A DNA stretch of 14,586 bases from an uncultured delta proteobacterium (GTDB lineage: Bacteria > Desulfobacterota > RBG-13-43-22), in contig CAWJJC010000018.1 of NCBI GenBank assembly GCA_963843145.1, positions 1 to 14,586 on the forward strand, read 5' to 3'. Under the pieces are notes generated by a model that worked only from the letters and a program-made list of their open reading frames with translations, was not told the DNA's origin and ran no database searches. Positions 3,766 through 12,959 of the stretch are shown one piece after another; within the stretch, counting starts at the first letter, position 1; each line of letters starts with the position of its first letter. Both the position numbers and the translations under genes were made by a program.

Positions 3766-4026
3766 ATGGGAAGCAGCAAACACAGGACTCAAATATCTTT
3801 AGAGATATGGCAATATGAAGCCTTGATGGAGGAATCACGAAAAACCAGGAAAAGCCTGGCCGGCATCCTGAGGGATTTAGTTGCAGAAAAATTCTCGGCC
3901 GACAAGACAAACCAAGTGGATGACCCGATTATGAGCATTATCGGCCTGGGCTCCGGCGACGGGAAAGCGGTTGCCAGAAATCATGACACCCTCCTTTATG
4001 ATGTTAAGCATCAAGATCCCAAATGA
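3766..4026 (+). CDS. Ribbon-helix-helix (CopG-like) antitoxin, VapB-type
   Basis: N-terminal RTQISL beta-strand plus two helices (QYEALMEES..KSLAGILRDLV); C-terminal DPIMSIIGLGSG..NHDTLLY typical of PIN-associated antitoxins; strong RBS; ATGA overlap with the PIN gene. Confidence 0.8.
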   Translation: MGSSKHRTQISLEIWQYEALMEESRKTRKSLAGILRDLVAEKFSADKTNQVDDPIMSIIGLGSGDGKAVARNHDTLLYDVKHQDPK

Positions 4027-4430
4027 AGCGTGTTTTCGTTGATACCGGTGCCTGGTATGCCTTGGTTGACCAGAAAGATCCCGATCACTCTGCTGCCGCA
4101 TCGTTCTTGAAAAATAATAAGATCCCCCTGCTGACAACCAATTTTATTTTTGATGAAACAGTCACTTTACTCAGAAGGAGGCTTGGTTGGATCATAGCGG
4201 TCCACTTCGGCAGACAGTTGAAAAACAGCAGACTGACCGACCTTGTTGCAGTGCAACGGGAAAACGAAGAAAAGGCATGGGAACTATTTCTTAAATTTAA
4301 AGATCAGGATTTTAGCTATACCGACTGCACGAGTTTCGCGGTCATGGAGGCCCTTAAAGTCGATAGCGCTTTCTCTTTTGATCGACATTTTCTGACGATG
4401 AATTTTAAGGTCTTTCCGGAAATCCAATGA
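4023..4430 (+). CDS. vapC: PIN-domain toxin, VapC family ribonuclease
   Basis: Four acidic catalytic positions in VFVDTGAW, FIFDETVT, SYTDCTSF and FSFDRHF; 135 aa; coupled to the upstream small gene. Confidence 0.9.
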   Translation: MKRVFVDTGAWYALVDQKDPDHSAAASFLKNNKIPLLTTNFIFDETVTLLRRRLGWIIAVHFGRQLKNSRLTDLVAVQRENEEKAWELFLKFKDQDFSYTDCTSFAVMEALKVDSAFSFDRHFLTMNFKVFPEIQ

Positions 4431-4569: not shown

Positions 4570-4611
4570 TTGACCTGATTATATCAATCCGATATATATC
4601 TAACAAATATA
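4570..4611 (+). promoter_or_regulatory. Promoter region with tandem palindromic operators, probably PadR autoregulation
   Basis: TTGACC at 4570-4575; TATATC-N5-GATATA (4580-4596) overlapping TATATC-N5-AATATA (4595-4611), directly upstream of padR. Confidence 0.6.
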
Positions 4612-4629: not shown

Positions 4630-5163
4630 ATGGACATCAAATCAATTCTTCTGGGATTTCTCAACCGTCAGCCTTTGACCGGCTATGATTTGAAGAAACG
4701 TTTTTCCATCTCCTTCTCTTTTTTTTCCGGTGCGAGCTATGGGTCCATCTATCCGGCCTTGAAGAAAATGGAAAGGGAGGGACTGGTAACACAGCAGATG
4801 GAAATTCAGGATGGGGCACCCAACCGCAAGGTCTATTCCATCACCGCTGCCGGACGTAAGGCTTTTATTGAGGCGTTAACGGCCCCCTATCATTGGGAGA
4901 TGCCGAAGAATACGTTTTTGATGCGCCTTTTTTTCTTCGCCCACCTCTCCCCGGAAGAACGGAAAACGGCGGTTCGCAGTCACTTGGAATCCCTGAAAGA
5001 AACGCAACGACAGCTCAAATCGACCCGATCGAAGATCGAAGGCCGGGCCGACTTTTACCAACTTCAATGCTACAACTTCGGGCTACGGTTCTACCAGGAC
5101 ATTATCCGAAACGTATCCCAAGTGCTTCAGGCTCTGGAAAAGACACCGGAAAAGGAGCAATAG
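4630..5163 (+). CDS. PadR-family transcriptional regulator (long, subfamily-1 type with C-terminal helical domain)
   Basis: ILLGFL..PLTGYDLKK, ASYGSIYPALKKMEREGLV, PNRKVYSITAAGR winged helix; 177 aa. Confidence 0.93.
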   Translation: MDIKSILLGFLNRQPLTGYDLKKRFSISFSFFSGASYGSIYPALKKMEREGLVTQQMEIQDGAPNRKVYSITAAGRKAFIEALTAPYHWEMPKNTFLMRLFFFAHLSPEERKTAVRSHLESLKETQRQLKSTRSKIEGRADFYQLQCYNFGLRFYQDIIRNVSQVLQALEKTPEKEQ

Positions 5164-5166
5164 CCC

Positions 5167-6201
5167 ATGGATTCCTTGAGCCGACCCCGGCAGCTTTTTT
5201 TATATATCGCCCCGTTTCCGGCCCTGGCCTTTTTCAAAATTTGGGCCTCCTTTGAGCCCTCGGCCGCAAGCCTGACCTGGATCACCCTGTTGCTTTTAGC
5301 CTACTGCCTGGCCATATTGGTCATTGCCCGGCAATGGGACAAACCCACCTATTTCGACTGGACCATCGCCGTCTATTTTACGATTGTTCTTTTGTCCTTA
5401 CTGATCGGACCGAATACCGCCGGACCTTTCCTTTCCCGTTATGCCGTCACCGGCATCTATACCTGTCTTTTCACGGCGGCCTTTTTCCCTCCCCTCCTGG
5501 GCCTGCCCCCCTTTACCTATCACTATGCCAAGAAATCTACCCCCCGGGATCTTTGGGAAAATCCGATTTTTATCCGAATCAACCGGATTATGACCTATGT
5601 CTGGTCCGGGATATTCGCGGCCTGTCTGCTCTTAAGCCTATCTCCTTCTGTTTTCACCAGGGCTTTGATACCGTTAACCTTGATCCTGGGAATGGGGATG
5701 CCCTTTAATTTTCGATTTCCTGACTATTATCTAAGAAAGATAGGCCTGCCCTCACTGGCTGAGCAGAAGAAACTGGCGGCAGAGGCGTCGGGCATGGTCC
5801 GTCCGGATCCTTCAACGGTCCCTTTGCCGGAAAGTGCCTGGGAGAACATTTCCCGGATGCCGGATTATTTCAACCCGGAGGCTTCCGGCGAACTGAATGC
5901 GGTTATCGCTTTCCTGGTGTCAGGATCTGAGCGCTTCGACGCCTACCTCGTTATTCAGGCGGGCAACTGCCGTCTGGAAAATACGCCGCCCCGTCAACCT
6001 GACCTGACCATCCGCACCCCCGCTGAGGTCTGGCTGGCCGTCACCCGCGGGGAACTCGACGGCCAGCAAGCTTTCTTTCAAAAAGCCTATCAAGCGGAAG
6101 GGGACCTGGGGCTACTGATGCGGATGAAAATCTTGTTCAGCGGCGGGGTCGCTGTGTCCGGCGGGAAAACACAAAGCGCTAAAACCGGACTTTCCGAATA
6201 G
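5167..6201 (+). CDS. Integral membrane protein (about 6 TM segments) fused to a C-terminal SCP2 sterol/lipid-binding domain
   Basis: Hydrophobic segments across aa ~10-180 with PFTYHYAK...W.NPIFIRINRIMTYVW; the C-terminal domain FNPEAS..AVIAF..PDLTI..EVW..GELDGQQAFF..EGDLGLLMRM matches the SCP2 fold pattern. Starts 3 nt after the padR stop. Confidence 0.8.
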   Translation: MDSLSRPRQLFLYIAPFPALAFFKIWASFEPSAASLTWITLLLLAYCLAILVIARQWDKPTYFDWTIAVYFTIVLLSLLIGPNTAGPFLSRYAVTGIYTCLFTAAFFPPLLGLPPFTYHYAKKSTPRDLWENPIFIRINRIMTYVWSGIFAACLLLSLSPSVFTRALIPLTLILGMGMPFNFRFPDYYLRKIGLPSLAEQKKLAAEASGMVRPDPSTVPLPESAWENISRMPDYFNPEASGELNAVIAFLVSGSERFDAYLVIQAGNCRLENTPPRQPDLTIRTPAEVWLAVTRGELDGQQAFFQKAYQAEGDLGLLMRMKILFSGGVAVSGGKTQSAKTGLSE

Positions 6202-6262
6202 GCATCTCAATAGTTGCCTTAAGTAAATCACCAGCAAGCAAAACACAAGAAAGGAGCAGGCA

Positions 6263-7340
6263 ATGAACATATTGGCTTTAAACGCCAGTCCTCGAGGCGG
6301 AGGACAAAGCAAGACGGAATTTTTGTTAAATCATCTGGTCCAGGGCATGCAGGAGGCCGGCGCTGGCGTAGAGGTGGTGGCGCTCCGCAAGAAGAAAATC
6401 AAGTACTGCGTCGGCTGCTTCACCTGCTGGACCAAGACCCCCGGGGTCTGCATCCACCAGGACGACATGACCAACGAGTTATTCCCGAAGTGGCTGGCCG
6501 CCGATCTGGTGGTCTATGCCTTCCCCCTGTATAGTTACACCGTCAGTGCCGCCATGAAAACCTTTATCGAACGCACCCTGCCCGTGCTTACAACCTTTTT
6601 TTGACCACCGCGAAGGTGAAACCTGGCATCCGTTGCGATGCGACCCTCCCAAGCGTGGTCATGCTTTCGGTGGCCGGTTTTCCCGAAAATCTGTATTTAA
6701 TCTACTTTCCTCCTGGGTCTCGGTTCGTTTTCGGCTTCGTCACGATTTTCTGGTGGCGGAACTGTATCGATCGGCGGCCGAAAACCTGATCGCCCCTATC
6801 TTTCTGGAAAAAGCCCGGGAGATCCGAGAGGCCTTTGTGCAGGCCGGTCGGGAGATTGTTCAGCAGAGTCTTGTCACCCCGGAAACCATGGCCCTTCTTA
6901 CCCAGGACTTTACCGAAAACAAGGAAATGTTCACCCGCATGGGGAACGCTTTCTGGAAAACGTGCATTGCGGAGGGGGTAAGCCCCAGGGAATTTGAGGA
7001 AAGAGGTCTTGTTCCCCGGCCAGATTCCATTGAAACCTTTATGATGCTTTTGTCGATGGGATTCAACCCGGATGGGGCCGGCAACACCAAGGCCGTCATT
7101 CAATTTAACTTTTCGGGTGAAGCGGAGGGATCCTGTTATTTCCATATTGAAAACGGTCGGATTGAACCGCAGCCAGGAAAAGCCGAAAAACCGGACCTGA
7201 CCATCGAAGCACCCTTCGAAGTCTGGATGGACATCATGACCGGCAAGGCCGACGGCCAGCAGATGTTCATGGAACAGAAATACCGGGTGAACGGCGATTT
7301 ATCCCTGCTGATGCGGATGAAGCAGTTTTTCGGGAAATAA
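6263..7340 (+). CDS. Isf-like iron-sulfur flavoprotein (flavodoxin/FMN-reductase fold) fused to a C-terminal SCP2 domain; several frameshifts at 6590-6740
   Basis: FMN loop ILALNASPRGGGQSKT; Cx2Cx2Cx7C (CVGCFTCWTKTPGVC); DDM..ADLVVYAFPLY..MKTFIERTLP. The protein continues through ORFs 6601..6789 (VVMLSVAGFPE) and 6633..7340 (SCP2). Span is 1078 nt = 359 codons + 1, i.e. net one extra base. RBS AAGGAG at 6251-6256. Confidence 0.85.
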
Positions 7341-7421: not shown

Positions 7422-7432
7422 TCTCAACATCT

Positions 7433-7473
7433 CCCCCTCCCTCGGCGGGAGGGGGGGGCGGGGCGGTGGGTGA
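7433..7473. repeat. GC-rich REP-like hairpin between convergent genes; possible bidirectional terminator
   Basis: Stem CCCCCTCCC (7433-7441), loop TCGGC, stem GGGAGGGGG (7447-7455), then a G-rich tail ending GGTGGGTGA. No classic U-tract. Confidence 0.6.
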
Positions 7474-7516: not shown

Positions 7517-8998
7517 TTAGGCTGATTTTTCACCGGGGTCTTCTTTCTCCGCCAAGTCCGGCTTCCGGGCGGCCAGGACCTCGTCCAGGCGTCCTACCGG
7601 CGTGGTGTGGGGCGCGGTTCGCAACAACTCCGGGTCGGTCTCGGCCGTCCGGGCGATGCGTTCCATGGCGGCCACCAAGGCGTCCAGGTTTTCCCGGTTC
7701 TCGGTTTCGGTGGGCTCGATCATCAGGGCCTCTTTGACCACCAGGGGGAAGTAGATCGTCGGGGGATGAAAGCCCTCGTCGATCAGGGCCTTGGCAATAT
7801 CGACCGCCCGAACCCCGTACCGCTCGGCCTTGTCGGCCGCCGAGAAAACCACCTCGTGCAGGCAGGGCCCTTCCACGGCCGGTTGCCAGTTTTCAGACAG
7901 TTTTACCCGCAGGTAGTTGGCCGCCAGGACCGCGTCCTCGGCCACTTTTTTGAGACCCGGCCCCCCCAGGGCTAAAATATAGGCGTAGGCCTTGAGGATG
8001 ACGCCGAAGTTGCCGTAGAAGGGCGCGATGTAGCCGATGGATTTCGGACGGTCATAGTCCAGGAAAAACGTTCCGTCGGCCCGCTGGAGCACCCGGGAGA
8101 CGGGCAGGTATTCGGCCAGCTTTTCCACCACCCCTACCGGGCCGGCCCCGGGACCGCCTCCCCCGTGGGGTGTCCCGAAGGTCTTGTGCAGATTCAAGTG
8201 GACGATGTCAAAACCCAGGTCCGCCGGTTTGGCCCGGCCCAGAATGGCGTTCAAGTTGGCTCCGTCGTAGTACATCAGGGCGTCGACCCGGTGGGCCGCG
8301 TCCGCGATTTGTTTAATGTACGGATTGAAGAGGCCCAGGGTGTTGGGATTGGTCATCATCACCCCGGCGACGCGGTCGTTCAGCCGGGCCTCGAAGGTCT
8401 CCGGGGTCATGATCCCCTTGACCGTCGGCACGGGTACCACCTCATACCCGGCAATGGCCGCACTGGCCGGATTGGTGCCGTGTGACTCATCCGGGGCCAG
8501 GATAATTGATTTATCGTTTCCCCGGTCCCGATGGTAGGCGGCCATCAACATCAGGCCGGTGAGTTCCCCGTGGGCCCCGGCCAGAGGCTGCAGGGTAAAG
8601 GCGTCCATGCCGGTAATCCGGCCCAGGAGCTGCTCGGTGTCGTAAAGGACCTGCAGCGCCCCCTGGGCCAGCAGACCGCCTCTTCGCAGTTGGGGCAGCA
8701 GGGGGTGGAGCTGGGCGAAGCCGGGAAGCCGGACCATTTCCTCCGTAAATTTCGGGTTGTATTTCATGGTGCAGGAACCCAGGGGGTAGGTCCCTACGTC
8801 GACCCCGAAATTGAGTCGGGAAAGATTGGTGAAGTGGCGCACCACGTCCACCTCGGCCATTTCCGGCAGCTCTGCCGGCCTGCTTCGGGAAAGTTCCGCT
8901 GGAAGCCGGCTAGCGGTAAAGGCCTCCGTCGGGATCCGCGGCCGGGGAAACATGACGGCCTGGCGGCCGGGACGGCTTTTCTGGAAAATGGTTTTCAT
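7517..8998 (-). CDS. gcvPB: Glycine dehydrogenase (decarboxylating) subunit 2, glycine cleavage P protein beta
   Basis: YPLGSCTMKYNPK, QPLAGAHGE, SHGTNPASA, TNPNTLG, PLP-lysine motif HLNLHKTFGTPHGGGGPG, MIEPTETE. Confidence 0.97.
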   Translation of the reverse strand: MKTIFQKSRPGRQAVMFPRPRIPTEAFTASRLPAELSRSRPAELPEMAEVDVVRHFTNLSRLNFGVDVGTYPLGSCTMKYNPKFTEEMVRLPGFAQLHPLLPQLRRGGLLAQGALQVLYDTEQLLGRITGMDAFTLQPLAGAHGELTGLMLMAAYHRDRGNDKSIILAPDESHGTNPASAAIAGYEVVPVPTVKGIMTPETFEARLNDRVAGVMMTNPNTLGLFNPYIKQIADAAHRVDALMYYDGANLNAILGRAKPADLGFDIVHLNLHKTFGTPHGGGGPGAGPVGVVEKLAEYLPVSRVLQRADGTFFLDYDRPKSIGYIAPFYGNFGVILKAYAYILALGGPGLKKVAEDAVLAANYLRVKLSENWQPAVEGPCLHEVVFSAADKAERYGVRAVDIAKALIDEGFHPPTIYFPLVVKEALMIEPTETENRENLDALVAAMERIARTAETDPELLRTAPHTTPVGRLDEVLAARKPDLAEKEDPGEKSA

Positions 8999-10314
8999 AG
9001 TACCGCCTCCAGGGCTTCGGCGAAACGGCCGATCTCTTCCTTGGTCCGTTTCTCGGTGACCGCTACCAGCAGGTTATTGGCTTGATCCGGATAATAGCGC
9101 CCCAGGGGAAAGCCGGCGGCAAACCCCTTATCGATCAGCCGGCTGACCGCCAAGCGGGCATCCAGGGGAAGCCGGAGGCGAAACTCGTTGAACCAGGGGC
9201 CCCGGTCCACCAGCGCCACTCCCGATATGGCGGTCAAACGGGAACGGGCATAGGCCGCCAGAGCCATGTTGAGCCGGGCCAGTTCCACCAGTCCGTTTTT
9301 TCCCAACAGACAAAGGTGGATCAGAGCGGCCACGGCGCAAAGGGCTTGATTGGTGCAGATGTTGCTGGTGGCCTTTTCTCGGCGGATGTGCTGTTCCCGG
9401 GTTTGGAGGGTCAGGCAATAGCCGGTGCGTCCCTGCCCATCCTTGGTGCGGCCCACCACTCGACCGGGCATGGCCCGGATCAATTCCTGGCGGACGGCCA
9501 TGATTCCCAGGTAAGGTCCTCCGAAAGAAAGGGGCAATCCCAGGGACTGGCCCTCTCCGACGGCGATGTCCGCACCCATCTCCCCCGGCGTTTTACAAAG
9601 GCCCAGGGCCAGCGGATAGCAATTGAGGATGGCCAGGGCCCCCAGTTCATGGGCCCTGGAAAAGTGAGCGGAAAAATCATGGAGACGGCCGAAAAAGTCA
9701 GGGTTCTGCAGGATGACGGCGGCGGTGGCCTCGTTGATAAAAGATTCCAGTGCGGCCGGATCTTCGAGATCTTCTTCCACCAGATCGATTTTCAGGTTGG
9801 CGGTATACGATCGGAGCATGACCCGATAGATGGGGTTGACCGAGGCGCAGACCAGCAGCCGCCGCCGTCCGGTCCGGCGGACGGCGATCATGGCCGCCTC
9901 GAACAGGGCCGTCCCCCCGTCATAGAGCGAGGCGTTGGCGGCGTCCAGGCCGGTCAGGCGGCAGACGGCCGTCTGGTATTCGTAAATGGCCTGCAGGGTC
10001 CCCTGGGATATTTCAGCCTGGTACGGGGTATAGACCGTGTAAAATTCGCCGCGGCGGATCAGGGCATCCACGGCGGCCGGAGTGAAATGGTCGTAAAAAC
10101 CCGCGCCCAGGAAACCGATCAGATGATGGGCATTCATGCCGGCCAGATACCGGAGGTGGTCTGTGACCTCCAATTCGCTCAGGGGCTCGGGAAGATCCCA
10201 GGTTTTCGCTTGCAGTTCCTCGGGGATGACCGCGAAGAGTTCATCCCCGGAATGAAGCCCCAGGGCTCTCAGCATTCCGGCCCGGTCCTTGTCGGTGTGA
10301 GGGGTGAAGTCCAA
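8995..10314 (-). CDS. gcvPA: Glycine dehydrogenase (decarboxylating) subunit 1, glycine cleavage P protein alpha
   Basis: FLGAGFYDH, YTPYQAEISQGTLQ, NASLYDG, GGPYLG, LQTREQHIRREKATSNICTNQAL; TTG start; ATGA overlap with gcvPB. Confidence 0.97.
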   Translation of the reverse strand: MDFTPHTDKDRAGMLRALGLHSGDELFAVIPEELQAKTWDLPEPLSELEVTDHLRYLAGMNAHHLIGFLGAGFYDHFTPAAVDALIRRGEFYTVYTPYQAEISQGTLQAIYEYQTAVCRLTGLDAANASLYDGGTALFEAAMIAVRRTGRRRLLVCASVNPIYRVMLRSYTANLKIDLVEEDLEDPAALESFINEATAAVILQNPDFFGRLHDFSAHFSRAHELGALAILNCYPLALGLCKTPGEMGADIAVGEGQSLGLPLSFGGPYLGIMAVRQELIRAMPGRVVGRTKDGQGRTGYCLTLQTREQHIRREKATSNICTNQALCAVAALIHLCLLGKNGLVELARLNMALAAYARSRLTAISGVALVDRGPWFNEFRLRLPLDARLAVSRLIDKGFAAGFPLGRYYPDQANNLLVAVTEKRTKEEIGRFAEALEAVL

Positions 10315-10317
10315 GGG

Positions 10318-10713
10318 TCAGACCCCTTTCTCCAGAAAGTCCTGATAACCCCGGGAGGACATCAGTTCCGCCACCTCTTCGGGATTGAATTCCTTGAGCT
10401 TGACCAGCCAGCCGCGGCCGTAACAATCCTGGTTGATCCATTCCGGATGGTCTCCCAGGTCCGAGTTGACTTCCGCCACTTCACCGGAAAGGGGAGAGTA
10501 AAAGTCCGCCGCCGTCTTGACGGATTCAATGGTCCCCAATTCTCCCATTCGGTCGACTCGTCGGCCGACTTCCGGGAGATCCACATAGGTGATATCACCC
10601 AACTGCTGCTGGGCGTGGTCCGTTATCCCCACCCAGGCCAGGGCGCCCTCGATTTTCACCCATTCATGCTCGGAAGTAAAATTCAATTCTTCCGGAATCA
10701 AGGTTTGGTCCAT
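10318..10713 (-). CDS. gcvH: Glycine cleavage system H protein (lipoyl carrier)
   Basis: EHEWV, VGITDHAQQQLGDITYVDLP, lipoyl-lysine motif IESVKTA, SPLSGEV, GWLVK. Confidence 0.97.
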   Translation of the reverse strand: MDQTLIPEELNFTSEHEWVKIEGALAWVGITDHAQQQLGDITYVDLPEVGRRVDRMGELGTIESVKTAADFYSPLSGEVAEVNSDLGDHPEWINQDCYGRGWLVKLKEFNPEEVAELMSSRGYQDFLEKGV

Positions 10714-10780
10714 ACCCGATCCTCCCGATTAATTAAGTTCAGCCGCCATTAATGACGACCTCGAAAAAAATCCAAAAACC

Positions 10781-10882
10781 TGTCATTGCGACCCCGGACT
10801 TGATCCGGGGGAAGCTAATCCCCAGCATAGTAGCTAGCTGATTCTGGGGGATTGCTTCGTCGCTTCACTCCTCGCAATGACA
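10781..10882. repeat. REP/MITE-like palindromic element A (GTCATTGCGA...TCGCAATGAC type)
   Basis: Perfect 11-bp terminal IR TGTCATTGCGA (10781-10791)/TCGCAATGACA (10872-10882); inner hairpin CCCCGGA-CTTGA-TCCGGGG; imperfect stem GAAGCTAATCCCCAG/CTGGGGGATTGCTTC. Confidence 0.8.
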
Positions 10883-10948
10883 GCGCTGGGGCCTTTTTGC
10901 GAACATATCAGCAATGACGCCCTCGGAAAAAGCTCAGCAGTCACGGTT

Positions 10949-11103
10949 TGTCATTCTGGGTCCCGCGACAGCGCGGGACCCAGAATCCTCCTACCGACAT
11001 CCTCCGCGGAGTTTATCCTGAGCCGAAAAACCAGATCCTTCGCGTTGCTCAGGATGACCAGCGCGGGGCTGAGGATGACGGCAGGCGAAGGGCTAAAAAT
11101 GAT
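10949..11103. repeat. REP-like palindromic element B (GTCATTCTG.../...CAGGATGAC type), nested and degenerate
   Basis: Perfect 15-bp stem ATTCTGGGTCCCGCG-ACAG-CGCGGGACCCAGAAT (10953-10986); ATCCTGAGC (11015-11023)/GCTCAGGAT (11047-11055); three degenerate copies GCTCAGGATGAC, GCTGAGGATGAC, GCTAAAAATGAT. Confidence 0.75.
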
Positions 11104-12282
11104 CTAAACCGAAAGAGCCCTCAGATATTGGCCCTCCCTTTTCAGAAATCGGGAGACGATTTCCCCCTGGAGTTCCTTCCCCCGATACTCAATGGTTACC
11201 CGATCCCCCGGGCGTAGGTTTCGGTCCAGATAGGCCAGGCCGATAGCCCGGATAAAGGATTTTTCCCCGGGTCGGGACCCGTCGAATTCCCAGGCGGGGA
11301 CCATCGTTCCGCTGGTCAATTCTCCCACTATCCGATCGTTAAATCGAACGGTCGATCCCTGCCGGATCATGCCTTTCCCCCGTACCTGCACCTTCATAAT
11401 CCTCCGGGGGACCAGGCTAACCGCCTCTGACCCTAGTTCCGCCGCCTGGGCGGCCAGGGCCTCCCGGCCCGGGAAATCACTCCGCTCCCGGGTCAGGCTT
11501 ACGCCGCGCAGCGCCTGGGGTAAGGAAAGGAGGGGCCGCTCCGGGCGGAGTTCATGCCCGTACAGCGGTAACCCGGCCTCCAGGCGCAGGGTGTCGCGGG
11601 CGCCCAGGCCGGCGGGAAGGACACCCAGGGGCTCCCCGGTTTTGACCAGGGTATCCCAAAAAGCGCCCAAGGCCTGGGCTGGAAGCATTACTTCGAAGCC
11701 CAGCGGTTCACCGGTGTAACCGCTTCGGGCGGTCAGCAATTCCAGCTTCCGCCAGCGAGCTGCGGCCGTCAGGCCGAACCCGGCGGCGGGTAGCCCTTCC
11801 ACCCCTGACGCGGCTAAAAGGGCCTCGCTCTTCGGACCCTGAACGGCCACCATCGACAATTCGTCGGTCATATCTTGAAGTCCCCTCTCGGATCCCGCCT
11901 GTCGGGTAAGGATTTCCCAGTCCCTTTCCCGGTTGGACGCATTGACCACCAGCAGCGTTTTATCCGGTGTGAATTGATAGAGGTAGGCATCGTCCAGCGG
12001 CCGCCCCTGCTCATCGGAAAACAGGGTGTATTGAGAAAATCCCGGTCGGAGACGGGAAGCGTCGTTGGTCAAGGTCCGGGTAAGGAGGGCCAACCCCTCC
12101 GGCCCTTTGATTAGGAAGCGGCCCAGGTGGCTGATATCAAACAGGGCGCCAAACTTCCGGCAGGCCAGATGTTCGGCGATGATACCGGAAGAATAATTGA
12201 CCGGCAAGCTCCATCCGGCGAATTCGGTCATTCGCCCCTTATGGGCCTCATGCCAGGCATCCAGGGGGGTACGGTGAGACAA
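11104..12282 (-). CDS. gcvT: Glycine cleavage system T protein (aminomethyltransferase)
   Basis: RTPL..H, FAGWSLPVNY, LFDISHLG, LDD, VVNASN, AVQGPKS, RSGYTGE..GFE, GLGARDTLRLEAGLPLYGHE, GELTSG; TTG start with GGAGG RBS. Confidence 0.96.
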   Translation of the reverse strand: MSHRTPLDAWHEAHKGRMTEFAGWSLPVNYSSGIIAEHLACRKFGALFDISHLGRFLIKGPEGLALLTRTLTNDASRLRPGFSQYTLFSDEQGRPLDDAYLYQFTPDKTLLVVNASNRERDWEILTRQAGSERGLQDMTDELSMVAVQGPKSEALLAASGVEGLPAAGFGLTAAARWRKLELLTARSGYTGEPLGFEVMLPAQALGAFWDTLVKTGEPLGVLPAGLGARDTLRLEAGLPLYGHELRPERPLLSLPQALRGVSLTRERSDFPGREALAAQAAELGSEAVSLVPRRIMKVQVRGKGMIRQGSTVRFNDRIVGELTSGTMVPAWEFDGSRPGEKSFIRAIGLAYLDRNLRPGDRVTIEYRGKELQGEIVSRFLKREGQYLRALSV

Positions 12283-12306: not shown

Positions 12307-12837
12307 CTATTTGAACTTCGAGACGGCCGCTTTCAGGGCCTTTTCCACCTCTTTCCAGGCGCCCTCGATCCCCGTCTTCAGGTCTTCCCAGGCCCCTCCC
12401 GATGACTGGTGGAGTTCATCCAACTTGGCTCGAGCGTTTTTCTGTTTGCCCTGCAGATCCTCGATCAATTTGCGGTATTCGGTTTTGGCCTCTGCGGCCG
12501 CCTGTTCCGCTTTGGCCTTCAGCCGGTCGATTTCCGGCTTCCATTCGTCAAACTGGGCTTGCAGCCGTTGAATGTAGACTTCCTTTAAACCGGGCGGCTC
12601 TTTTCCTTCAAAAGGGTTATACCCAGGCTTTTTGTACAAGCGGGCCTCGTTTCCTAATATATCCGGGCGATAGACCTTTTCGGCCCATTCGGAAGGTTCC
12701 ACCTCCTCAAAGGCTACCGACACGGTCTTTTCTTCACAAACGGCAATCTCCATGACCTCCCGGGTGATGGCTTCCGCCAGTCGTTTCTTCTGGTCCTCGG
12801 TCCGCCCGGGATGCAGCTTAATGATTACATGAGGCAT
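12307..12837 (-). CDS. 4-oxalocrotonate tautomerase-family (PptA/YdcE-like) domain fused to a ~95-aa coiled-coil domain
   Basis: The likely start is the ATG at 12837 (GAGGAG RBS upstream), giving M-Pro1[19 protein letters not shown]..[21 protein letters not shown]. The C-part [36 protein letters not shown] resembles a small stand-alone helical protein family (Sll1863-like, from recall). The ORF-track start at 12954 would bury the catalytic Pro1. Confidence 0.85.
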
Positions 12838-12930
12838 ACGGATGGTCTCCTCTCTTCCGGATAATTGCTCGAGCCTGTTGCCCAATTCCACGAGGCAGCG
12901 AAACCCAAAATTTATTTTATTTCTTGTATA

Positions 12931-12959
12931 GTTATAGCACTTCTCTTTATCCATTTCAA
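12931..12959 (-). promoter_or_regulatory. sigma70 promoter with extended -10 for the tautomerase-fusion / gcv transcript
   Basis: Minus strand reads TTGAAA-17 nt-TATAAC, with TGn directly before the -10 (TGCTATAAC). Confidence 0.65.

Follow-up and report, generated by a model that had tools for sequence, protein, structure and literature searches.

Organization of the locus

The window analysed here is the whole 14,586-nt stretch of contig CAWJJC010000018.1 from an uncultured delta proteobacterium of the Desulfobacterota (GTDB lineage RBG-13-43-22; assembly GCA_963843145.1). Its feature region, at positions 4630–7340 of the + strand, contains a regulator gene, padR, followed by a gene for a protein of about six transmembrane (TM) helices with a C-terminal SCP2 domain (SCP2a) and a gene for a flavoprotein with an FMN_red domain, a four-cysteine motif and a C-terminal SCP2 domain of its own (SCP2b). 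The three genes lie at the positions which had been given for them in an earlier sequence-only reading of this DNA (Table 1). The stop codon of padR (TAG, 5161–5163) is separated by a gap of 3 nt from the ATG of the membrane-SCP2 gene at 5167, and a spacer of 61 nt lies between the membrane-SCP2 gene and the flavoprotein gene. As the ATG of the latter is preceded by its own AAGGAG site, the split between these two genes is taken to be genuine in the window.

Table 1. Features of the padR, membrane-SCP2 and flavoprotein genes in the window.
Feature	Position	Strand	Description
padR promoter with embedded putative operator	4570..4598	+	Sequence reading and inverted-repeat search
padR	4630..5163	+	177 amino acids (aa); PadR-family regulator, two-domain type
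Membrane-SCP2 gene	5167..6201	+	344 aa
Membrane domain	5167..5745	+	About 193 aa, six helices (AlphaFold2); no described family
SCP2a, disordered tail and stop codon	5836..6201	+	C-terminal SCP2 of the membrane protein (Pfam, Foldseek)
AAGGAG ribosome-binding site	6251..6256	+	6 nt 5' of the ATG at 6263; sequence reading
Flavoprotein fragment 1	6263..6604	+	113 aa, frame 2; start of FMN_red/flavodoxin-like domain, SPR...SKT loop, four-Cys motif
Cluster of five indels	6590..6737	+	+1 near 6590, +1 near 6654, -1 near 6687, +1 near 6719, +2 at 6736-6737
Flavoprotein remainder	6738..7340	+	Frame 3; end of flavodoxin-like domain, helical linker, SCP2b

At least 165 relatives of the membrane-SCP2 protein were found in the protein collection, many of them of about 595 aa with the membrane domain fused to FMN_red and SCP2. 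As the sequence-only reading had supposed, these homologues have no assigned function, their names all being generic and derived from domains (putative sterol carrier protein, multimeric flavodoxin WrbA, SCP2 sterol-binding domain-containing protein). Full-text literature searches returned neither an assigned function for an architecture of PadR, membrane-SCP2 protein and Fe-S-type flavoprotein nor an account of it. An anti-phage defence system was ruled out, with no PADLOC match for five proteins.

Conservation and fusion across the Desulfobacterota

A scan of one genome per species yielded 109 encoding stretches, of which the best 80 were kept, 17 of them distant loci from outside the Desulfobacterota. 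Architecture and synteny were compared in 64 sources, namely the window and 63 further loci (L001–L063), all from Desulfobacterota. The 63 loci come from Syntrophobacteraceae, Desulfomonilaceae, Desulfatitalea, Syntrophorhabdus, Smithella and Syntrophales, nearly all as metagenome-assembled genomes (MAGs), and were classified, like the window, by local phmmer searches on stop-to-stop open reading frames (ORFs). The flavoprotein was found adjacent to or fused with the membrane domain in 59 of the 64 sources, and in 38 both were encoded by one ORF. The padR, membrane-domain and flavoprotein genes, or their fused equivalents, thus form a conserved unit, and the association proposed from the window alone recurs elsewhere. 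As the arrangement is recurrent in dozens of genomes, it is far from chance, and the frequency of adjacency and fusion indicates that the membrane domain and the flavoprotein work as one unit.

Within this sample, the fusion and split classes depend on stop-to-stop ORFs in MAG assemblies which carry some frame errors, and on this basis the commonest form, with the membrane domain written as TM and the flavodoxin-like domain as FLAV, was TM-FLAV-SCP2 in one ORF (29/64). The four-domain form TM-SCP2-FLAV-SCP2 was encoded by single ORFs of 717–732 aa in nine sources, this count having been drawn from the 64 sources plus 56 Pfam-scanned representatives. Separate ORFs for TM-SCP2 and FLAV-SCP2, the form of the window, were also found in nine sources. 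Six others have the same split with an SCP2 of the flavoprotein type on the membrane protein, and six have a bare TM protein beside FLAV-SCP2. The fusion which the sequence-only reading had suggested looking for therefore exists, in forms of 595 and about 725 aa. Its proposal of docking or hand-off of a ligand between two SCP2 domains did not hold as a general mechanism, because the largest group has one SCP2 and six more sources have the bare membrane domain beside the flavoprotein; in 37 of the 64 sources no SCP2 lies between membrane domain and flavoprotein.

Clustering of the neighbourhoods showed that only padR and one further gene recur beside the unit. The latter encodes a protein of about 360 aa which is partly similar to RnfB, has a Cys-rich CCxCCC stretch and carries a 2x[4Fe-4S] ferredoxin domain at its C-terminus. 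It was found in 14 of the 64 loci, directly adjacent to the unit in ten of these. In six (L028, L030, L032, L045, L047 and L053) it lies between padR and the membrane gene and in four (L004 and L023–L025) just 3' of the flavoprotein gene. It is plausible that this protein serves as electron donor. Its gene is not present in the window. It should also be noted that two MAGs carry two copies of the membrane gene each (L012 and L021, L058 and L062), one fused to the flavoprotein and the other with no flavoprotein adjoining it.

PadR and the promoter palindrome

The padR product matches the N-terminal PadR winged helix-turn-helix domain (PF03551, 67.5 bits, E 1e-18, cutoff 27) and the C-terminal helical dimerisation domain (PF10400, Vir_act_alpha_C, 36.6 bits, E 7.4e-9, cutoff 22.4) in Pfam, and reached no NCBIfam model at cutoff. 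It resembles the PadR subfamily-1 regulators (B. subtilis PadR, LmrR-like, AphA-like) in its winged helix with a C-terminal helical domain and in the palindrome over its promoter. Regulators of this subfamily typically control responses to phenolic or hydrophobic compounds. The putative operator differs, being TATATCG-N4-5-CGATATA here compared to the ATGT-N8-ACAT type, and the regulated genes are new.

In the window, the padR promoter has a −35 region of TTGACC (4570–4575), followed by the inverted repeat TATATCAATCCGATATA at 4580–4596, whose right half together with the next bases forms a TATATA-like −10 region. This is the only copy of the palindrome in the window. Across the loci, the footprint within the 110 nt 5' of padR consists of TTGACA and then TATATCG-N4-5-CGATATA, the right half of which is the −10 region. 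With a strict pattern the palindrome was detected in 41 of 47 padR upstream regions compared to 0.03% of shuffled sequences, the remaining six deviating from the pattern, and its centre lies at a median of 37.5 nt 5' of the padR start codon. None of 12 loci lacking padR has the palindrome 5' of the membrane gene. A conserved palindrome between the −35 and −10 regions is thus a feature of the padR promoter, and its position suggests that PadR may autorepress the whole operon through it.

A padR gene on the same strand lies at most 186 nt upstream of the membrane gene in 41 of the 64 sources, 1.19–2.05 kb upstream in seven, with the Fe-S protein gene intervening in six of these seven, and 3,988 nt upstream in one. 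Three sources, with at most 338 nt of upstream sequence, could not be assessed.

The membrane domain

The AlphaFold2 model of the 344-aa membrane-SCP2 protein (pLDDT 85.8, pTM 0.67, from a 49-sequence alignment) shows six long helices, at residues 9–28, 33–57, 62–80, 82–110, 133–157 and 162–191, followed by an SCP2 fold. Lysine and arginine are clustered at the N-terminus, in loops 2 and 4 and at the C-terminus after helix 6. By positive-inside counts this places both termini of the membrane domain inside, and the SCP2 domain and the flavoprotein would therefore be cytoplasmic.

The membrane domain is the best-conserved part of the protein. Its signature is a loop and helix, predicted to be cytoplasmic, with the motif PFT-x-x-Y-A-K...W-x-N-P-x-F-x-R-I-N, in which F116, T117, W130, P133, F135, N139, W146 and F150 are invariant even in bacterial and archaeal relatives from Actinomycetota, Methanoregula and Thermofilaceae. 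Comparison with Pfam (34 members, E<=5) gave no consistent family, the top model being a phage holin in four of the 34, and no match for the domain of the window. The best NCBIfam score was 17.6 bits to a DxFTY membrane-protein model with a cutoff of 60. In a fold search of the PDB with the membrane-SCP2 model, every significant match was on the SCP2 part and none on the helices. The ESM Atlas gave a best score of 0.87 to unnamed Actinomycetota membrane proteins, with one weak lead to DUF3159/YciB. An identity as a heme-binding cytochrome b was considered and rejected, since the domain has no conserved histidine or cysteine and is thus not a heme protein.

A profile search of 1.84 billion representatives placed the domain in 1,897 clusters (50% identity) at E<=1e-3, with 1,048 of these at E<=1e-10, and it accordingly appears, from profile searches, to belong to a large undescribed family of its own. 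Stand-alone proteins of 170–230 aa make up 77 of 147 newly listed best matches of the profile. Among the 150 best representatives, 56 were picked by length and scanned with Pfam for fused partners. A C-terminal SCP2 was found in 13, FMN_red with SCP2 in 11, FMN_red in five, an alpha/beta-hydrolase in three, FMN_red with LytTR in one and an FAD amine-oxidase-type domain in one, with no recognised partner in 22. Examples of the hydrolase, LytTR and amine-oxidase-type fusions are P0190, P0191, P0195, P0197, P0260 and L076:3-2060, the last from a Thermofilaceae contig in which the membrane domain is fused to an FAD oxidase. In two Methanoregula loci (L064, L065) an FMN_red gene lies immediately upstream of the membrane-domain gene, and in three Streptomyces loci (L075, L078, L080) a divergent gene for a two-domain PadR lies beside it. 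In L078 (8209–9633) the membrane gene stands between this PadR and an RPE65-type oxygenase. As RPE65 adjoins the membrane gene in this locus only, a general association with carotenoid-cleavage oxygenases was rejected.

The sequence-only reading had treated this part as a membrane anchor. That role appears too small for the most conserved part of the protein, with a large family of its own. As its recurrent partners are lipid-binding domains or kinds of enzyme which often handle hydrophobic substrates, the domain is likely to be more than an anchor.

The SCP2 domains

Both C-terminal domains match the SCP2 family PF02036 (cutoff 21.3), SCP2a with 47.3 bits over residues 239–324 and SCP2b with 56.7 bits at about 7086–7331. 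The assignment was borne out by modelling. The SCP2a model matched the SCP2 of human SCP2, the SCP2-like domain of MFE-2 and AF1534 (8af2, 1ikt, 3cnu) in Foldseek with E-values of 4e-5 to 6e-5 and target TM scores of 0.62–0.67, and SCP2b of a fused relative, P0082, matched 1ikt with a target TM score of 0.68.

The reading frame carrying SCP2b, which spans 6603–7340, also matches Pfam Alkyl_sulf_C (28.6 bits, cutoff 27), and the linker and SCP2 of the P0082 model resemble the dimerisation and SCP2 part of the alkylsulfatases YjcS and SdsA1 (Foldseek E of about 2e-6). The C-terminal region of the alkylsulfatases SdsA1, Pisa1 and YjcS, with its dimerisation and SCP2-like part, is thus similar to the linker plus SCP2b, and these enzymes are a precedent for an SCP2 domain recruiting a hydrophobic substrate to a fused catalytic domain. 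They differ in being hydrolases of the metallo-beta-lactamase fold, with no flavoprotein, and in not being integral to the membrane. A weaker likeness is seen to UbiJ and UbiT, in which an SCP2 fold binds isoprenoid quinone intermediates. Here, however, the SCP2 domains are fused to a membrane domain or a reductase and their scores stay under the family cutoff, NCBIfam UbiT giving 20.5–21 bits compared to a cutoff of 46.9.

The flavoprotein

Fragment 1 of the flavoprotein matches PF03358 (FMN_red) with 64.4 bits, which assigns it to the flavodoxin-like FMN_red fold. Its translation contains the motif C49-x2-C52-x2-C55-x7-C63 (6407–6451). All 19 orthologues compared retain these four cysteines, and likewise C230 (within WKTCI) and C287. 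The helical linker is marked by two invariant motifs, WKTCI and PRPDS. The four cysteines would form a putative ligand set for a [4Fe-4S] cluster.

Among solved structures the only strong-scoring sequence relative is the flavone reductase FLR of Flavonifractor plautii (7d38/7d39), which gave both the best sequence and the best profile match to the flavodoxin-like domain (E 4.9e-9 and 7.6e-11, the latter over profile positions 1–107). The alignment spans the four cysteines of the flavoprotein. FLR is described as a dimeric FMN enzyme of the WrbA fold whose C-terminal extension shapes a pocket for flavones, which are hydrophobic polyphenols, and its assays used FMNH2 supplied by a separate reductase (PMC7862272). 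The likeness thus covers the same four cysteines in the alignment, the WrbA-type FMN fold and a C-terminal extension which makes a pocket for hydrophobic polyphenols. FLR differs in being a soluble protein of 310 aa from a gut Firmicute, with no membrane domain and no PadR context reported, and in its C-terminal subdomains, which are not SCP2 (Foldseek target TM score 0.43). The sequence match ends at about residue 107–146, beyond which the flavoprotein continues with the helical linker and SCP2, and the C-terminal subdomain of FLR was therefore not found in it.

The domains of the P0082 model matched, in Foldseek, FLR, the archaeal NAD(P)H:quinone oxidoreductase 4r81, azoreductases and NQO1/2. 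The enzymes of the WrbA, NQO, azoreductase and MdaB type (fold matches to 4r81, AzoR, paAzoR1 and NQO1/2, E 4e-6 to 1e-4) carry out two-electron reduction of hydrophobic electrophiles. They lack the Cys motif and the SCP2 of the flavoprotein, as well as an integral membrane domain. Profile matches in the PDB were confined to FLR, azoreductases, a WrbA-like chain and SCP2 proteins. No NCBIfam family was matched, and the WrbA/azoreductase-type models scored far under cutoff (NF007280, 22.4 compared to 162 bits; NF002370, 18.3 compared to 143). By these membership tests the flavoprotein appears to fall outside the FLR (in its C-terminal part), UbiT, WrbA and azoreductase families, while all soluble domains of the operon fall in known superfamilies. 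The operon may be described as encoding a probable reductase of the flavodoxin-like kind, controlled by PadR and acting on hydrophobic electrophiles, together with an undescribed membrane module.

The broken frame of the flavoprotein gene

By referring to a repaired flavoprotein the sequence-only reading had implied that the gene is broken, as proved to be the case. With the closest intact orthologue (L011, 357 aa) as frame reference, tblastn and DNA alignment located five indels within 150 bp (Table 1). DNA identity to L011 is 89% over the affected stretch, and the indels are mostly outside long homopolymers. Elsewhere the gene is clean, the first 113 aa being 83% identical to L011 and the SCP2b end near-identical over long stretches.

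The flavoprotein gene has a single frame in 56 of the 63 sources with a match to it. Of the seven flagged as broken, L032 was wrongly flagged on account of the SCP2 gene upstream, and true breaks occur at scattered positions in the window, L002, L013, L020, L031 and L057. In other MAG loci the frame is broken in padR or in the membrane gene. A programmed or hot-spot frameshift was considered, since the breaks of the window, L002 (P0041) and P0117 fall in a similar stretch, and was rejected on account of the 56 single-frame sources and the scattered positions of the other breaks. As the breaks differ in position among loci, a programmed frameshift is disfavoured and sporadic assembly indels fit.

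A second gene of the window is also split. The gene for a CLC chloride-channel/CBS protein, at 24–1839 on the − strand, is represented by two overlapping ORFs (709–1839 and 24–1235), and since the first matches positions 1–166 of Pfam Voltage_CLC and the second positions 162–344, the frame changes near 1066–1079. This second break has to be weighed in judging whether the indels of the flavoprotein gene arose in assembly.

The indels may instead be real, in which case the flavoprotein gene would be a pseudogene and the operon a dead relic in this genome, with only PadR and the membrane-SCP2 protein being made. This is held to be somewhat unlikely. It would account for the concentration of five indels in 150 bp mostly away from long homopolymers and for the split CLC gene, and it has a parallel in four relatives (L010, L012, L062, L063) which are naturally without an adjoining flavoprotein. 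The rest of the gene is, however, clean and well conserved relative to L011, the scattered breaks in five other loci and those in padR and the membrane gene are the pattern of indel errors in assemblies, and a cluster of indels free of attendant substitutions is more suggestive of a poor local consensus than of decay. Assembly error and real pseudogenisation are not separable by sequence alone.

Neighbouring genes in the window

Directly 5' of the padR promoter, at 3766–4430 on the + strand, there is a layout of the VapBC toxin-antitoxin type in which an 86-aa ORF of no recognised family overlaps by 4 nt the gene for a PIN-domain protein of 135 aa (PF01850, 47.4 bits). Downstream, a complete glycine-cleavage set is encoded on the − strand at 7517–12282, consisting of gcvT (11104–12282), gcvH (10318–10713), gcvPA (8995–10314) and gcvPB (7517–8998). 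Between the convergent ends of the flavoprotein gene (7340) and gcvPB (7517) lies a G/C-rich hairpin at 7431–7457, CTCCCCCTCCC-TCGGC-GGGAGGGGGGG. This hairpin may be a terminator, and a consensus terminator scan did not call it. No structured RNA or riboswitch, including the glycine riboswitch, was matched at the Rfam gathering score in the window. Beside the glycine-cleavage operon, a 215-aa ORF (12307–12954, − strand) combines a 4-oxalocrotonate-tautomerase-type domain (residues 40–113) with a C-terminal stress-response domain of the sll1863 family (NF052504, 108 bits), which is an unusual fusion.

Proposed function and alternatives

It is suggested, with about even confidence, that the operon encodes an inducible, PadR-repressed reductase tethered to the membrane, which would pass low-potential electrons from an Fe-S centre to FMN and reduce a membrane-partitioning, quinone- or polyphenol-like compound presented by the membrane domain and SCP2. 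PadR bound to the palindrome would keep the whole operon shut, and a hydrophobic or phenolic inducer would release PadR. Electrons would enter through a putative [4Fe-4S] cluster on the four invariant cysteines, with ferredoxin or the adjacent RnfB-like Fe-S protein as probable donor and NAD(P)H also possible, and would be taken up by FMN for the two-electron reduction of a quinone, a flavonoid-like compound or another polyphenolic compound which partitions into the membrane. The reductase would be held at the cytoplasmic face of the membrane, where the conserved cytoplasmic loop of the membrane domain and the SCP2 domain or domains could lift the compound from the bilayer and present it to the flavin. 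This role of SCP2 is likened to that which the domain is thought to have in alkylsulfatases. In bacteria of anoxic soil, peat and groundwater, the likely role would be to detoxify aromatics from plants or humic matter, or to use them, upon induction.

A wider proposal, held to be rather doubtful as a whole, is that the six-helix domain represents a new and widespread "substrate portal" family, of about 1,900 clusters in bacteria and archaea, which would hand compounds dissolved in the bilayer to a cytoplasmic enzyme (FMN reductase, FAD oxidase, alpha/beta-hydrolase) or to SCP2. In the Desulfobacterota it would have been joined, under PadR control, to SCP2 and to an Fe-S flavoprotein driven by ferredoxin, for the reduction of humic or plant quinones or polyphenols in strict anaerobes.

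Several observations count against the membrane-tethered reductase. All functional statements made here are drawn from domains, fusions and context. The reductase gene of the window itself is broken, so that this copy is either mis-assembled or inactive. Five of the 64 sources have no flavoprotein adjoining the membrane gene, although in one of them (L017) the sequence ends 357 nt past that gene, and 12 of the 64 lack padR although their sequence extends at least 1 kb upstream. Nor does the neighbourhood of the unit in these sources contain conserved genes of catabolism or transport which would hint at a substrate. The model of the fused relative P0082 is of moderate quality (pLDDT 71, pTM 0.40). 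As to the cluster, no chain named as an iron-sulfur flavoprotein (Isf) was among the 19 PDB sequences matched at E<=0.01, the presence of Isf in that copy of the PDB being unverified. In the searched passages of the main text of the FLR paper, neither "cysteine" nor "Cys" occurs and the sole mention of "4Fe-4S" concerns another class of enzyme (PMC7862272), so that an Fe-S cluster is unproven even in this closest solved relative.

An alternative to the reduction of foreign aromatics is that the unit serves the cell's own isoprenoid quinone, either as a membrane-tethered menaquinone reductase or as a UbiJ/UbiT-like chaperone and reductase acting together with an enzyme of NQO type. It would then feed the quinone pool of syntrophic Desulfobacterota or protect it. 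Syntrophs are among the taxa concerned (Syntrophobacteraceae, Smithella, Syntrophorhabdus), and quinone-linked reverse electron transport is important in syntrophs. The flavodoxin domain resembles NAD(P)H:quinone oxidoreductases, and the SCP2 domains weakly match both the UbiT model, with E-values of 3e-4 to 5e-4, and structures of UbiJ-SCP2, with E-values of 4e-3 to 8e-3. The UbiT scores are, however, far under the cutoff, as noted above, and the recurrent neighbours in the 64 sources are padR and the Fe-S protein only; quinone-biosynthesis genes were not among them, with no search having been aimed at ubi or men genes. An autorepressed PadR promoter would suggest an inducible response and not a housekeeping respiratory component, and the other partners of the membrane-domain family, namely a hydrolase, an FAD oxidase and, as a neighbour, a carotenoid-type oxygenase, give no specific indication of quinones. 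A dedicated role in the quinone pool is thus considered unlikely.

Less likely still is an oxidative-stress enzyme of the Isf type. Such an enzyme would use ferredoxin electrons to reduce O2, H2O2 or the hydroperoxides of membrane lipids, the peroxidised lipid being presented by SCP2. Isf of Methanosarcina thermophila, whose presumed donor is ferredoxin, has the FMN_red fold and, in its N-terminal part, a compact motif of four cysteines (CX2CX2CX4-7C). The flavoprotein, with a compact CX2CX2CX7C beside its FMN_red fold, has the hallmark of Isf, and ferredoxin-like Fe-S neighbours are present in 14 loci. However, no sequence kinship to Isf was detected, the flavoprotein had no NCBIfam family match, its PDB profile matches were of the FLR, azoreductase, WrbA-like and SCP2 kinds only, and Isf is not known to have an SCP2, linker or membrane partner. 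PadR regulators are not known as typical peroxide sensors, and the neighbourhood has no conserved gene for a peroxiredoxin, a rubrerythrin or the like.

For the membrane-tethered reductase, the observations made in the sequence-only reading stand and its interpretation stands in part, in that what is reduced, what donates the electrons and whether an Fe-S cluster is present are matters of inference. The undescribed membrane module may be the more interesting part of the system. If the proposal is true, it would give a role to SCP2 domains in anaerobic bacteria, where their function is largely unknown, and to an unnamed membrane-domain family of about 1,900 clusters in Desulfobacterota, Actinomycetota and archaea whose members are repeatedly found with enzymes for lipophilic substrates. 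Direct tests are within reach, since the naturally fused forms and the conserved putative operator reduce the system to one polypeptide, one regulator and a 17-bp site. An inducible Fe-S flavoprotein of this kind could join in the turnover or detoxification of quinones and polyphenols in peat, soil and groundwater communities. Were the wider proposal for the six-helix family also true, it would represent a previously unrecognised route by which strict anaerobes reduce membrane-partitioning quinones and polyphenols.

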